From a virus, in IMG/VR virus record IMGVR_UViG_3300042564_002372, positions 45,828 through 109,827 of that record: a DNA stretch of 64,000 nt; one strand, 5' to 3'. The notes under the pieces were generated by a model. The model had not been told where the DNA came from, did not search any database, and saw only the letters and a program-made list of their open reading frames with translations. A program made the translations under genes and the position numbers. Below, piece by piece: positions 42,468-47,790 of the stretch (position 1 is the stretch's first letter; each line of letters starts with the position of its first letter).

Positions 42468-42735
42468 CGATTTCCTCCTCTTGTTCTCTTGTCATCACTG
42501 ATTTCCATTTCTCTGTAGGACACGCACAAGACAAGCATTTTGTTTTAGCAGAAAGTGTACATCCACAATGTGTACAATGTTCATCAAAACGTATCGTCTT
42601 ATGATGTTTAGAATGAAACTTGCATTCATTGCAAATTGCCATTCTTTCAGCTGACACCTGATCAATCTGTTCCTTTAGTTTTTCTTCTGGAAGCAGATTG
42701 TTTTTCCAACCTTCGTAAATCTGTGTTAAGCTCAT
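42457..42735 (-). CDS. Cys-rich Zn-binding protein
   Basis: RMAICNEC...CTHCGC...KTKCLSCACPTEKW. Confidence 0.65.
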   Translation of the reverse strand: MSLTQIYEGWKNNLLPEEKLKEQIDQVSAERMAICNECKFHSKHHKTIRFDEHCTHCGCTLSAKTKCLSCACPTEKWKSVMTREQEEEIDGE

Positions 42736-43075
42736 TTATCTTATTCATTAATATTTTACGCTTCAACAACATCTGATCAATATCATCATTCCACTTCTCC
42801 GTTTTAACATCACTATCAGAATTGGAAATCCTATCCCTAAAACTCCTAATCTTCTCATCTAAAACATCAAGCTTTTTCTGGGCAGCTCTATCATTCCATT
42901 TCAATGTACCAAACCCAGAAATCTCCACTGTCTTATTTTTCTGTAAAGCTGCCAATGTGCTGTCAAACTGATGTCGTATTATTTGATCAACAATATTAAC
43001 ATCCATGTTTAAGGACTCGGAGAGCTTTCTAACAAACCAATCCCTATGGGACATTGAATTAGGCTTTTCCTTCAT
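42662..43075 (-). CDS. HU/IHF-like DNA-binding protein
   Basis: LQKNKTVEISGFGTL matches the HU/IHF signature. Confidence 0.65.
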   Translation of the reverse strand: MKEKPNSMSHRDWFVRKLSESLNMDVNIVDQIIRHQFDSTLAALQKNKTVEISGFGTLKWNDRAAQKKLDVLDEKIRSFRDRISNSDSDVKTEKWNDDIDQMLLKRKILMNKINELNTDLRRLEKQSASRRKTKGTD

Positions 43076-43406
43076 GCAAAATCTTTATCTCTAATGTAAT
43101 GTCACTGGAGAAATCTAATGATATGAGGGGATTGACAACAATCTTTCCATCCTTCTTAAGAAGCAAGTTTCTTTTTTTGAGCTTAGACACCATGTTGTTC
43201 ACTGTAGCTCCTGTGGTTTCATAGGTTGAACAAAACTTCTCTCTATTACTTGGAACAGAAATACTTCCAGAAACAGCAATGAAAGACATCAGCTGAACTT
43301 CCCGTGTTGTAAGCATCAAATCGTTCAATGCAGAAAGAACAGAATAATACCTGTACGACACATCCGTGTCATTCTGTAATCCCTTCTTTAATCGTTGTAC
43401 AATCAT
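43059..43406 (-). CDS. Winged-HTH protein (RepL/MarR-like)
   Basis: LTTREVQL...TVNNMVSKLKKRNLL..DGKIVVNP; start reassigned to the ATG at 43406. Confidence 0.55.
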   Translation of the reverse strand: MIVQRLKKGLQNDTDVSYRYYSVLSALNDLMLTTREVQLMSFIAVSGSISVPSNREKFCSTYETTGATVNNMVSKLKKRNLLLKKDGKIVVNPLISLDFSSDITLEIKILHEGKA

Positions 43407-43424
43407 TTCCTTATTGGTTTCTAA

Positions 43425-43457
43425 CAAATATAAAACATCCTCCGTGAAAATAACAAA
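43425..43457 (-). promoter_or_regulatory. Bacteroidota sigma-A type promoter driving the structural arm
   Basis: TTTG-N21-TATATTTG, matching the -33/-7 consensus TTTG-N19-21-TAnnTTTG. Confidence 0.7.
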
Positions 43458-43459
43458 TT

Positions 43460-43645
43460 TTATTATTTCTGTTTTTGAATCAAGGCCCCACCCAGGTGAT
43501 GAGTTGTAAAGAAACCCCCCACCAAAATTTTCAAAATTTGGAAAAATGTTGTGTCAATGGGAGGGGAGGTTACTTCCAGTTGCAACCCCACGCAGAGTTG
43601 GGGTAGTCGAGGGACTCCCCCTTAAACACACTTAACCAATCAAAA
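43460..43645. other. Divergent-arm junction, GC-rich non-coding (possible genome end/packaging or origin region)
   Basis: Coding strand switches here; G/C runs contrast with the AT-rich surroundings. Confidence 0.4.
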
Positions 43646-43648
43646 ATC

Positions 43649-44026
43649 ATGTTACAACACTTAGCACCAACAAAATCAATTGAGGTAATTGGCACTCTTG
43701 CTGAAATCGTAGGAACTGGAGGTAAAGTATTCTACTCTCCAGGAAACTGGGATGGAGATAAGCGCATCTTCCTTGAACTAAGAACCGCTTCTGGACAGGA
43801 AGGTAGAATCTTCTGCTCACCTGCTGTGAGCAAGCACCTTCGTGAGAAGACCATGAAGCCATCTCAGTTGTTTGGAATGCCTGTCGCTCTTATCACTAGA
43901 GTTGATAAGACCAAAGGTTACACCGTTACTTTGCCTGGTTCTCAACTTGTGGAACTTGCAGTTCCAACTGAAGTTGAGACTTGGACTCAACCAGCAACAT
44001 TAGAAGAAGTAGAGAGGGTTTCATAA
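43649..44026 (+). CDS. First early protein, hypothetical (125 aa)
   Basis: A-rich leader, followed by a terminator-like hairpin. Confidence 0.7.
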   Translation: MLQHLAPTKSIEVIGTLAEIVGTGGKVFYSPGNWDGDKRIFLELRTASGQEGRIFCSPAVSKHLREKTMKPSQLFGMPVALITRVDKTKGYTVTLPGSQLVELAVPTEVETWTQPATLEEVERVS

Positions 44027-44042
44027 CCCTCTTTTCTTCTCT
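44001..44042 (+). terminator. Terminator-like hairpin
   Basis: AGAGGGTT-TCAT-AACCCTCT followed by TTTCTTCT. Confidence 0.6.
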
Positions 44043-44075
44043 ATATACAGGGTGGGAGTAAAAACGTTTGGGTGG

Positions 44076-44675
44076 GCTAGTTACACAGAGATTGTATCTG
44101 TGCAAATCAGACATATATTATAAATACAATGAAGGGTTCTACGAGGCCAAGCATGTGGTAATGCGTTGTAATATATATGGTGTGATCTGTGTAACTAGTT
44201 TATCCTTACTAAAGTACAACGAATGTAGGGTAATGTACAATTTAATAAAGTTTTACACGGGAAAACTAAAACTTCATGTTGTACTTTATCAAGAATTTGT
44301 TGAGTGAATAAGAGTAGGAGTGACACCACACACGTAATAATGACATGTTTTCGTAAGTGTCGTTTTTACTATTCACTATTTTATATAGCATTAACAAACA
44401 ATTGTATGTGGCCACGTAGTGCCTTAATCCATCCGTGATGCATGTGTAAGCATGTAGGATGGACATACAATTTCAATGCACCATTCTCACTTCCCAAGGG
44501 TGAGCAGTTGTAATAGATGAAGCGTCAGCAAAATGGGTCAATGCAGAAATAATTTCACAGCGACATAACCAATGGGTCATGCTGTAATTGTTTGCCTGTG
44601 ACATAATCTATTACAATTGAGTGCAGAGGGATTTGGAGGGTCAGATGCTCCCGAGCAGGTGCAAGGCCTGCATTT
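44076..44675 (+). ncRNA. Candidate large structured RNA / hairpin array
   Basis: Six consecutive stem-loop domains, most with 9-14 bp stems containing G-U pairs; no convincing ORF. Confidence 0.55.
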
Positions 44676-44704
44676 ATTATTTAATCATTTAAACGCACAA
44701 CAAC

Positions 44705-44884
44705 ATGTTAAAATCAATTTTAATTTTCTTGTTTCCTAAGACTATTGCTTCTATTAAGAAGGATAGTATTAATGAATATCTCTGTAATCATGAAGATCCA
44801 GAATTTGATCAAATGCAGGCTGATTATTATGAGATGATGAGTATTGAACATCAACAATGGCTAGAACAAGATGAAAACATTTAA
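44705..44884 (+). CDS. Hypothetical protein, 59 aa
   Basis: Manually translated MLKSILIFLFPKTIASIKK...QDENI; AAACGCAC leader. Confidence 0.55.
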   Translation: MLKSILIFLFPKTIASIKKDSINEYLCNHEDPEFDQMQADYYEMMSIEHQQWLEQDENI

Positions 44885-45161
44885 TGATTTAGTCTTTATA
44901 GATGAGATTATGTATGGCGACTTAAAATGGAGTCGCTCATACATGATATTTGATAATGGATATGGTATATCTGTTGTAAAAGGTCCTCATAGTTATGGAG
45001 GTAAATTAGGCTTATATGAAATTGCTGTCTTAGATAATGATGGCTACATCACTTATGAAACACCTATAACTGATGATGTAATAGGCTTTCTTAAGCCTGA
45101 AGATGTTAGTAAACACATGATTGAAATTCAAGAATTACCAATTGCACACAAAAACACATAA
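44871..45161 (+). CDS. Hypothetical phage protein
   Basis: FDNGYGISVV..SYGG..GLYEIAVL..TPITDDVIGFL, a recurrent phage early-protein pattern. Confidence 0.7.
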   Translation: MKTFNDLVFIDEIMYGDLKWSRSYMIFDNGYGISVVKGPHSYGGKLGLYEIAVLDNDGYITYETPITDDVIGFLKPEDVSKHMIEIQELPIAHKNT

Positions 45162-45166
45162 AACGA

Positions 45167-45472
45167 ATGAACACATTAAAAGTAGTTAGGGCTATAGCAG
45201 TGGGAACTGCTCTCCTTGCAGGAATTCTATCTGTTCTCATTATTATGTTTGCTGGAACAGCACTTGAGATGGGTGTAACAGATGAACAGTTCTTATTCAC
45301 TGTCATCATCTTTTTCATTTCCACATTATATTGGTTGGCTGTTGATGCTCTTATTAGAAGAGATGAGGCTGATACAGAAGCAATGAAGAAGATTCATCAA
45401 ACAACATTCAATCAGGCTGCTGTATTGATGATTCTTTCTATTATTGGAACACTTTCTCTGGTATTCTTATGA
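45167..45472 (+). CDS. Membrane protein (about 3 TM segments)
   Basis: Three hydrophobic stretches. Confidence 0.65.
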   Translation: MNTLKVVRAIAVGTALLAGILSVLIIMFAGTALEMGVTDEQFLFTVIIFFISTLYWLAVDALIRRDEADTEAMKKIHQTTFNQAAVLMILSIIGTLSLVFL

Positions 45473-45675
45473 AGTATGCCAGAGAGTGTTCTATTACAGG
45501 TGAAGGAATGAATGAGGGATGGGTGGGAGATGATGGATGTGTCTATTTTAAATATGAAAAAGATGCAAAGCAATGGTGCATAAGCAGAGGATATAGAGAT
45601 ATTGATGATGCTTATGTTGATGATGTAATTTATTACACAGAATGGGATGAGTTTGAACTAGACTTTGAAGAATAG
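45469..45675 (+). CDS. Small acidic hypothetical protein
   Basis: Coupled ORF, D/E-rich C-terminus. Confidence 0.6.
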   Translation: MKYARECSITGEGMNEGWVGDDGCVYFKYEKDAKQWCISRGYRDIDDAYVDDVIYYTEWDEFELDFEE

Positions 45676-45677
45676 CC

Positions 45678-45887
45678 ATGATTGTAGCAAGACAAAGTAT
45701 TATATCTGGTAAGGTTTATCAGATGGAATTGGATATCACTCAACAACAGTTGGATGATTTTGCTAATGATAAACTTGGATTGATTCAAGAAGCATTTCCT
45801 CATTTGTCTATTGATGAACGTGAATTCATCATATCTGGTATCCATCCAATAGAATGGAGAGAGTTATTTGGAGAATTAGAAGAATAA
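45678..45887 (+). CDS. Hypothetical phage protein
   Basis: LIQEAFPHLSIDEREFIISGI motif. Confidence 0.65.
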   Translation: MIVARQSIISGKVYQMELDITQQQLDDFANDKLGLIQEAFPHLSIDEREFIISGIHPIEWRELFGELEE

Positions 45888-45901
45888 AAAACAAAACGCA
45901 C

Positions 45902-46018
45902 ATGAAAAAATTAACTAAAAAAGAATTCAGTGAAAGAGTAGTATTCTATAGTCTACTATCAGCACTAGTCATCATGCTAATTGTATGGTGGATTGAGTTT
46001 ATTAAATACTTCCCATAA
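45902..46018 (+). CDS. Single-TM peptide, 38 aa
   Basis: MKKLTKKEFSERVVFYSLLSALVIMLIVWWIEFIKYFP; AAACGCAC-ATG leader. Confidence 0.5.
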   Translation: MKKLTKKEFSERVVFYSLLSALVIMLIVWWIEFIKYFP

Positions 46019-47500: not shown

Positions 47501-47609
47501 AGTCAGGTGGCGGAATTGGTAACGCACATACAACGAAGGGTGTGTACAGCCCAACCATAAAGAGAGTTGTATGGTGGTATAAATGTGGGTTCGAATCCTA
47601 CTCTGACTA
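47501..47609 (+). ncRNA. tRNA-like RNA 2 (109 nt, enlarged anticodon arm)
   Basis: AGTCAGG/TCTGACT acceptor, GCGGAATTGGTAACGC D-arm, CATACAAC/GTTGTATG stem around a 31-nt insert, GTGGG-TTCGAAT-CCTAC T-arm. Confidence 0.75.
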
Positions 47610-47628
47610 CACACTAAAAACAAAACAC

Positions 47629-47790
47629 ATGGAACTACTAATTAGCATACTAATTGTCACCAGCATTTCTACATTCATTGCTGTATTTTGGATAAAAGGC
47701 ATAAACGACATGCATGAAAATTATCCTGATTACAAAGGAGAAGATTTGTTTGATGAAGATTTGAATAAAAATAAACAAACAAACACATGA
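47629..47790 (+). CDS. Single-TM small protein
   Basis: MELLISILIVTSISTFIAVFWIKGI...; start moved downstream of the tRNA-like element. Confidence 0.55.
   Translation: MELLISILIVTSISTFIAVFWIKGINDMHENYPDYKGEDLFDEDLNKNKQTNT

Follow-up and report, generated by a model that had tools for sequence, protein, structure and literature searches.

A predicted, enlarged twister-type ribozyme in a mosaic non-coding region of a distant crAss-like lake phage

Introduction

Twister ranks among the best-studied small ribozymes and reportedly goes back to Roth et al. in 2014. To our knowledge, its natural role has not been settled.

As a reference system we took the type P1 twister, in which P0 and P5 are optional and which is represented in Rfam by RF03160 (PMC5408937, PMC6765202, PMC11662667). 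In the published order, an N-A cut site is followed by a 4-bp P2 and by an 'NC' that forms a 2-bp pseudoknot with L4; a CCC:GGG pseudoknot is present, the catalytic G lies in G-A-GGG, and P0, P3 and P5 are optional (PMC5408937, PMC11662667). The A at the cut site is highly conserved and a second A stacks on P2 (PMC5408937, PMC11662667). Activity is retained when P1 is deleted, and in crystal structures the G-C pair closing L4 is essentially invariant (PMC5408937). In the rice twister, P4/L4 reads CCGG-UCCCAAGC-CCGG (PMC11662667).

According to PMC5737381 and PMC6765202, Weinberg et al. (2015) reported neighbourhoods of hatchet, pistol and twister-sister, in which ribozymes cluster in phage-like intergenic regions. 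Bacterial and phage ribozymes have been suggested to process polycistronic transcripts (PMC6765202). The non-coding block described here resembles the GOLLD and ROOL systems (RF02032; PMC5737381), with their long, gene-free, helix-dense regions in lake phages, often near tRNAs, and it contains an element that we compare with twister feature by feature.

Results

Genome and borders of the non-coding block

The window, that is the whole 64-kb stretch of DNA analysed, is the right-hand part of a 109,827-bp IMG/VR virus record. Its large terminase, portal and DNA polymerase belong to PHROG families 6681, 6547 and 1252, respectively. Terminase identity amounts to 40% with Leptolyngbya phage Lbo-JY46, 32% with Cellulophaga phages phi17:2 and phi4:1, and 27-31% with gut crAss-like phages; these values mark the phage as a distant crAss-like one. 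Lake metagenomes are the source of its relatives.

Leftward structural genes stop at 43427. A lone rightward ORF, ORF125 (43649-44026), ends in an intrinsic-terminator-like hairpin (44011-44034, + strand) that closes it and delimits the non-coding block on the left; in contig L117, a hairpin of other sequence stands at this place. The block studied is the gap between ORF125 and the ATG at 44705, with which the first of many small rightward ORFs begins. ORF125 was assigned to no family, and no relatives were found when it was used as a handle. Between the divergent gene sets, positions 43430-43648 hold unusually many G-runs and C-runs (CCCCCCACC, GGGAGGGGAGG) as well as a hairpin, GGGGUAGUC-GAGG-GACUCCCC. 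This stretch is 78-87% conserved in L144, L133 and L056, where the adjoining ORF125 is swapped for other sequence.

A preliminary description had put the block forward as a candidate novel large ncRNA, and the Rfam scan indeed named no family in the stretch: a permissive scan of 42500-46000 and a scan of the whole window at gathering score yielded chance-level matches only, plus one outlying tRNA-like match. Hatchet, pistol, hammerhead and twister-sister had no match in the window in these scans, nor did GOLLD (RF02032), either at 42500-46000 (E <= 10) or in the whole window (gathering score). Blastn against GenBank phages left the region without a match, and ARAGORN called no tRNA or tmRNA in the stretch. 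The outlying tRNA match, at 47501-47609 (+ strand; 109 nt, 40.1 bits, above the cut-off), was not called by ARAGORN and overlaps a listed 82-aa ORF (47542-47790).

A scan for sigma-70-type promoters found none on the + strand of the block. The motif T[TC]TATATA[CG][AC] occurs twice in the genome, both times within the block, against about 7 occurrences expected by chance on a rough composition estimate, and is thus not enriched. A 16-mer around 44379, considered as a promoter, occurs once and is no repeat. Among the small early ORFs tested, no RNA-end-repair enzyme was recognisable.

Folding energy, strand and coding potential

The six inverted repeats listed in the preliminary description all lie at the coordinates given there, the first arm pair matching at 13/13. 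Compared with shuffled controls, the + strand of the block folds better than chance (661 nt, z = -3.6), but both strands do so equally. Element by element, + strand z-scores were -3.5 for H1, -2.1 for H2, -1.3 (not significant) for H3, -3.3 for H4 and -2.0 for module T; the P4-P5-P2'/T1 part of the twister-type element (44486-44630) scored -1.95, a value that omits the 5' P2 strand and L2 (size limit). For H2 and H4, the minus strand gave the better score. Since both strands fold well, energy alone neither proves an RNA nor assigns a strand.

The strand is given by changes in relatives. One-sided changes, in the twister family as well as in H1-H2, almost always yield G.U on the + strand, and most of the structures therefore sit on + strand RNA; this pattern bears out the earlier proposal that a + strand RNA structure is under selection. 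The view of the block as free of genes was likewise sustained, as indels among relatives have lengths not divisible by three and no ORF is conserved. A coding reading was rejected: a 79-aa ORF (44068-44307) and a 44-aa ORF (44304-44438) are lost in relatives through frame-breaking indels and early stops.

A variant of twister predicted at 44475-44630

By its match to published features and by covariation, the segment 44475-44630 (+ strand) is a predicted self-cleaving variant of twister, of type P1 with P5. The predicted cut site lies between C44474 and A44475, and A44476 follows. P2 is UGCA/UGCA (44477-80/44622-25), to which C44481-G44621 adds a fifth pair. P4 (44486-90/44500-04; CUCAC/GUGAG) carries L4, UUCCCAAGG, at 44491-99, and P5 is a 115-nt arm (44505-44619) that corresponds to the fifth hairpin of the preliminary description. 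On the 3' side, G44626-A44627 precede the pseudoknot strand of T1, in which C44493-95 would pair with G44628-30, and in T2 C44481-82 would pair with G44498-99.

The order of elements is the same as in twister, running from the cut N-AA through P2, NC, L2, P4, U-CCC-AA-NN, P4', P5, P2' and G-A-GGG to the optional P1'. Also shared are the CCC:GGG complementarity, a conserved A at the cut site, a conserved G at the position of the general base, a dispensable P1, and intergenic sites near phage genes and other ribozymes. Set beside the rice P4/L4, CUCAC-UUCCCAAGG-GUGAG matches U-CCC-AA-NN.

The element also departs from the published form. P5 is much larger, with 10-182 nt in the family and 115 nt in this copy. 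L4 has 9 nt, and U.G replaces the near-invariant G-C closing pair; by inspection of alignment rows, L4 reads UU-CCC-AA-GG, with U where G is expected and P4 resuming right after GG. The 2-bp pseudoknot is CC:GG and not GC:GC, and may compete with the fifth P2 pair. Finally, a subfamily has a conserved insert, of at most about 250 nt in the inspected copies, between P4 and L4. At E <= 10, the twister-P1 model RF03160 matched neither the window nor L031 (P5 of 46 nt, the shortest among the exact 22-mer matches listed) nor L116 (a 62-nt minimal copy), and five whole phage records gave nothing above its cut-off.

Conservation and covariation across the family

The 22-mer core CCCAAGGGTGAGCAGTTGTAAT is found exactly in at least 119 IMG/VR contigs. 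Among bacterial genomes, it occurs only in four lake MAG contigs, which are probably phage DNA. Copies have a common scaffold, AAUGCACCA..CUCAC-UUCCCAAGG-GUGAG-CAGUUGUAAU(10-182 nt)AUUACAACUG-A-GUGCA-GAGGG, in which the median length of the P5 insert is 91 nt. Searched against 1 Mb of fetched loci, a covariance model built from 40 copies gave 128 matches, divergent ones included. The model finds one copy in this genome. Five further phage records that are near-complete hold 0-2 each; in the fifth of them, L058, the copy is cut off at the locus end.

In an alignment of 99 copies, 92.9% of cells pair, compared to 32-50% with slid partners, and 24 pairs change on both sides, compared to 11.0 +/- 1.6 in shuffles (0/500). 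Helices P1, P2, P4 and P5 covary. For P2, 99% of cells pair and double-sided changes are seen in 4/4 pairs, with variants such as UGUAC/GUACA and UGCGU/ACGCA; for P4, 98.6% of cells pair and 5/5 pairs covary, with the variants UCAAC/GUUGA, CCUGA/UCAGG and CUAGU/ACUAG. P1, which lies outside the search model, pairs in 63% of cells, by UA, AU, GC, CG and GU. In the present copy it is essentially absent, with 2/4 possible pairs.

The positions that matter for cleavage in twister are kept. A+1 is present in 97/99 copies and A+2 in 96/99, and U occupies N-1 in 88/99. In G-A-GGG, the G (G44626 here) and the A that follows it are present in 95/99 and 97/99, respectively. Both strands of T1 are kept in 93-96/99 copies and never vary together, so that no covariation signal is possible for this pseudoknot. 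The CC and GG of T2 are able to pair in 97.9% of cells. However, where C44481 changes from C to U, a G-to-A change accompanies it at 44621 (UA:5, besides UG:4) more than at the L4 G (UA:1). As C44481-G44621 covaries better, T2 is ambiguous with respect to the fifth P2 pair.

Other readings of the core were considered and dropped. The 22-mer resembles a T7-type promoter (TAAT..ACTCACT) and, through GTTG..CAAC, a mimic of a CRISPR repeat, but covariation and the twister register account for all of the conserved bases. An HDV-like topology, a hammerhead core and a pistol core, compared by eye, did not fit.

Several variants of the element were seen. Tandem arrays are found in L102 (four copies) and L114 (three copies). 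In a second form of the ribozyme (form 2), the 5' strand of P4 is separated from L4 by an inserted conserved domain, GUGGAUAUAAAGACUUCUUA ... UAAGAUGUGAAACCAC, together with a second hairpin, CUGAUUAA..UUAAUCAG. Such copies (L003 at about 2100-2645, L115, L125, L053, L060, L103 and others) are ribozymes of about 300-400 nt, with an insert of about 150-250 nt in those inspected; the insert of L003 matched no Rfam family. In some P5 arms, for example in L080:10120-10249 and in L060, there are hairpins that resemble T-arms (GGUUCAAAUCC, GGGUUCAAUUCCC), and the motif GGUUUAAAUAG recurs. Degenerate copies keep the P2 and P5 scaffold and are without the CCCAAGG loop or without P4 (L065:537-635, L044:640-816 and L022:909-1021; further examples are L060:1949-2116, L114:4773-4880 and L133:3432-3543). 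In these, the 3' GAGGG or GAGAG often pairs instead with a 5' CCCC or CUCUC. The degenerate copies look decayed or repurposed, and they are sometimes in tandem with intact ones; the scaffold is thus able to outlast loss of the catalytic core.

H1-H2, a lineage-specific RNA

H1 (44077-44198, + strand) is a three-way-junction RNA with covariation. In its outer stem (44077-89/44186-98), 5 pairs show double-sided changes. Within it are a small hairpin (44097-100/44108-111, loop UGCAAAU) and a long AU stem that begins at 44112/44179 and has a variable tip; the junction strands AAUGCAUC and UGGUGUGAG are conserved. By our reading of the alignment rows, the L015/L202 group has the outer stem swapped for an unrelated complementary stem, GAAGAACAU/AUGUCUUC.

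H2 (44229-44288, + strand) is a nearly invariant hairpin, GUAAUGUACAAU...AAAGUUU-loop-AAACUU...AUGUUGUACUUUA, in which the one-sided changes are all to G.U or G-C on the + strand. Its core was matched in 55 lake-metagenome contigs. The second hairpin of the preliminary description is thereby redrawn in part: the 3' arm is kept, but the proposed 5' arm at 44210-20, an alternative partner, is little conserved and has an A.C mismatch in most relatives, and the invariant partner is 44229-40.

For H1-H2 as a whole, represented by 30 distinct lake sequences, 93.7% of cells are paired, compared to 28-47% with slid partners; there are 57 double-change cells, compared to 21 +/- 3, and G.U is seen on the + strand only. 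Searches of relatives found H1-H2 in this lineage only. We conclude from the comparison of sequences that H1-H2 is a separate, lineage-specific + strand RNA. With about 270 nt, it may be a candidate new class of ncRNA.

H3, the boundary motif, H4, module T and the leader

H3 (44313-44370, + strand) is a weak, G.U-rich hairpin of this genome only. The preliminary description had counted it as the third hairpin, but it is not kept in L117 or L133, where uncompensated changes fall in its 3' arm, and its folding score is not significant. It was also considered as a terminator in relatives, where the terminator scan did not call it. The motif TATTCACTATTTTATATAGCATTAA (44370-44394, + strand) forms a boundary, with conserved sequence on its left side and mosaic sequence on its right. 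The string used in searches was TTATATAGCATTAA, its 14-nt 3' part; the full 25-mer is conserved in alignments of relatives. From the H2 core to TTATATAGCATTAA, the distance is 149-150 nt in nearly all relatives that have the string; in one exception, L187, it is 666 nt. The motif might be a promoter or a recombination joint.

H4 (44401-44472, + strand) is a three-way junction that ends 2 nt upstream of the predicted twister cut, in the position of P0. It is made up of AUUGUAUGU / GGCCAC-GUA-GUGCC / UUAA / UCCAUCC-GUG-AUGCAUG..GGAUGGA / ACAUACAAU. This module recurs in 12 IMG/VR contigs, either just 5' of a twister or as the P5 arm of a twister, as in L024, L141, L143 and L055.

Downstream of the twister-type element, module T (44632-44682, + strand) consists of two hairpins spanning 44632-44671 and, in this genome, a U-rich tail. 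The first hairpin is GGAG..CUCC and the second is GCAGG-U-GCAA-R-G-CCUGC, with a GNRA-type loop closed by U-R. A pattern scan called 44655-71 with ATTTATTATT a terminator. Module T recurs in the more distant contigs L046, L057, L080 and L103. Because in L057 and L103 it stands directly 5' of a twister and has no U-tract, it is not simply a terminator. A conserved leader, TCATTTAAACGCACA (44685-44699, + strand), lies just 5' of the first small early ORF.

Mosaic structure in relatives

Through a small protein encoded nearby (44871-45161), two related contigs were found, in which conserved blocks are separated by large indels. In L137 (109,983 bp), H4 is followed directly by module T. Alignment of L137:400-546 with 44401-44702 leaves an exact gap of 156 nt that equals 44475-44630, with its boundaries just 3' of the predicted cut and at the final pseudoknot G, so that the ribozyme behaves as a discrete unit of insertion or deletion. 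L144 keeps H1-H2 and has other sequence downstream. In L002 and L003, a small ORF with its own terminator lies between H3 and H4, and L003, a close relative, has an expanded twister (form 2) of about 400 nt at the homologous place. Across the 55 lake-metagenome contigs, content and order vary between the 44370-94 motif and the leader at 44685-99.

The preliminary description had proposed, among other readings, one multi-domain large ncRNA. Blocks that are separable, gained, lost and reshuffled, as in L137, L144, L002 and L003, are not the behaviour of one large RNA, and this proposal is not supported. Its other suggestions, that the block encodes decoys, antitoxin mimics or RNase III sites, received no support; the most conserved module is the predicted self-cleaving ribozyme, of a known class, and processing would therefore be intrinsic to the RNA.

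Neighbours of the twister family

Of 63 twister copies, 61 are intergenic, and 58 of 62 share their strand with the gene downstream. Hatchet ribozymes above the Rfam cut-off lie near family members (L019:191-325, L060:3088-3239 and L014:5635-5767), at distances of about 1-1.5 kb. In this respect the family is like the neighbourhoods of hatchet, pistol and twister-sister. Contigs of the same set also carry phage tmRNAs above the cut-off (L139:303-732, L039:9393-9837 and L019:8424-8820), with tRNAs nearby, and a freshwater-1 RNA above the cut-off lies at L128:12522-12584 on a contig with the twister family. A P0 hairpin upstream of the ribozyme was found across the family in 35% of cases, compared to 27% in control windows, which is no clear enrichment.

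In two contigs, a GOLLD match abuts the twister match. The first, L070:1635-2020 (133.7 bits), ends 3 nt before the twister match and the second, L034:4367-4761 (100.8 bits), ends 6 nt before it, both scores being below the 150-bit cut-off. The predicted cut in both contigs is 5 nt into the twister match. This arrangement fits trimming of an upstream RNA, and the twister in L034 and L070 may define or trim the 3' end of GOLLD. The block of the present phage differs from GOLLD and ROOL in that H1 to H4 have no match at E <= 10 and in that it is modular and not one conserved fold.

Discussion

We favour the reading that this is a mosaic, rightward-transcribed non-coding region with at least four independent RNA modules, in which an enlarged twister is the predicted processing element, and we give it a probability of about 0.68. 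From the structures, their strand and conservation, the shuffling of modules and the feature-by-feature match to twister, we infer transcription, cleavage and a role in processing. The transcript would fold P2, P4 and the 115-nt P5 arm, and L4 (UUCCCAAGG) would dock onto the 3' GAGGG and onto the CC of L2, upon which cleavage would take place between C44474 and A44475. The upstream product would carry H4, as well as H1-H3 if these are co-transcribed, and would end in a 2',3'-cyclic phosphate; the downstream product would begin with a 5'-OH and contain the body of the ribozyme, module T and possibly the message of the early genes. The likely role of the twister would thus be RNA processing, in which an upstream folded RNA is severed from the leader of the early genes. 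Given the terminator-like hairpin 3' of the ribozyme, the ribozyme may instead end a short RNA and not an mRNA leader.

This arrangement is like the punctuation of polycistronic transcripts by ribozymes and tRNAs, with a predicted self-processing element placed between RNAs and co-oriented with the flanking genes. It differs from such systems in having only one or two twister copies per genome of about 100-120 kb. A broader version of the favoured reading is that lake phages have a cassette region of interchangeable RNAs, in which enlarged twisters serve as punctuation and release each RNA with defined ends. The cassettes would be H1-H2, H4, module T, GOLLD-like RNAs and the variable P5 or L4 inserts; the ribozyme arms would carry payload domains, and the L4 insert could make cleavage conditional. 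We regard this extension as tentative, and on balance would not expect it to hold in full.

The alternative that survives best is that the element derives from twister and no longer cleaves, being a three-way junction that presents the P5 arm or binds a protein and that keeps its core for the sake of folding. The Rfam twister model does not match it, the closing pair of L4 differs, T2 is ambiguous, copies without the CCCAAGG loop persist (L065:537, L044:640, L022:909 and L060:1949), and the P5 arms, like the large conserved L4 insert of form 2, resemble payloads. Yet the positions for the chemistry, including A-A and G-A-GGG, are kept at 95-98%, which is hard to explain for a silent scaffold, and the family is found in typical ribozyme company, near hatchet. 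We therefore think that loss of cleavage is unlikely.

Less probable still, at perhaps one chance in ten, would be that a single multi-domain ncRNA of about 600 nt acts as a unit. Contiguous hairpins with no conserved ORF, terminator-like hairpins on both sides, the overall z of -3.6 and GOLLD-class RNAs in related phage regions would suit such an RNA. Against it, the modules are found apart and in other orders in relatives, H3 is not conserved, the block is interrupted in L002 and L003 by a small ORF with its own terminator, GOLLD, ROOL and other Rfam families have no match here, and an internal self-cleaving ribozyme, as predicted, would split the molecule. Least probable by far is an element acting as DNA, such as a replication origin or a recombination hotspot with DNA hairpins at the switch from leftward to rightward genes: the cumulative GC-skew minimum at about 43-44 kb, the equal folding of both strands (with H2 and H4 better on the minus strand) and the position at a mosaic joint would agree with it, but + strand G.U changes would read as A.C mismatches in DNA or on the opposite strand, the pseudoknot partners and unpaired invariant bases of the twister would be meaningless in DNA, and the skew switch is explained by the coinciding change in gene direction.

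Under the favoured reading, that of a mosaic of RNA modules with an enlarged twister, the finding bears on the ribozyme class as well as on these phages. A large phage-borne subfamily of twister, present in at least 119 viral contigs, is missed by the curated Rfam model because its arms are greatly enlarged, and surveys based on Rfam therefore undercount phage ribozymes. Natural insertions of large domains in P5 and L4 are relevant to how ribozymes become regulated. H1-H2 is flagged as a conserved RNA, as yet unassigned, in uncultured crAss-like lake phages. The sites of the twisters, after GOLLD-like RNAs, beside folded modules and co-oriented with early genes, suggest that they trim or release structured phage RNAs; alternatively, they may set the 5' end of early messages.
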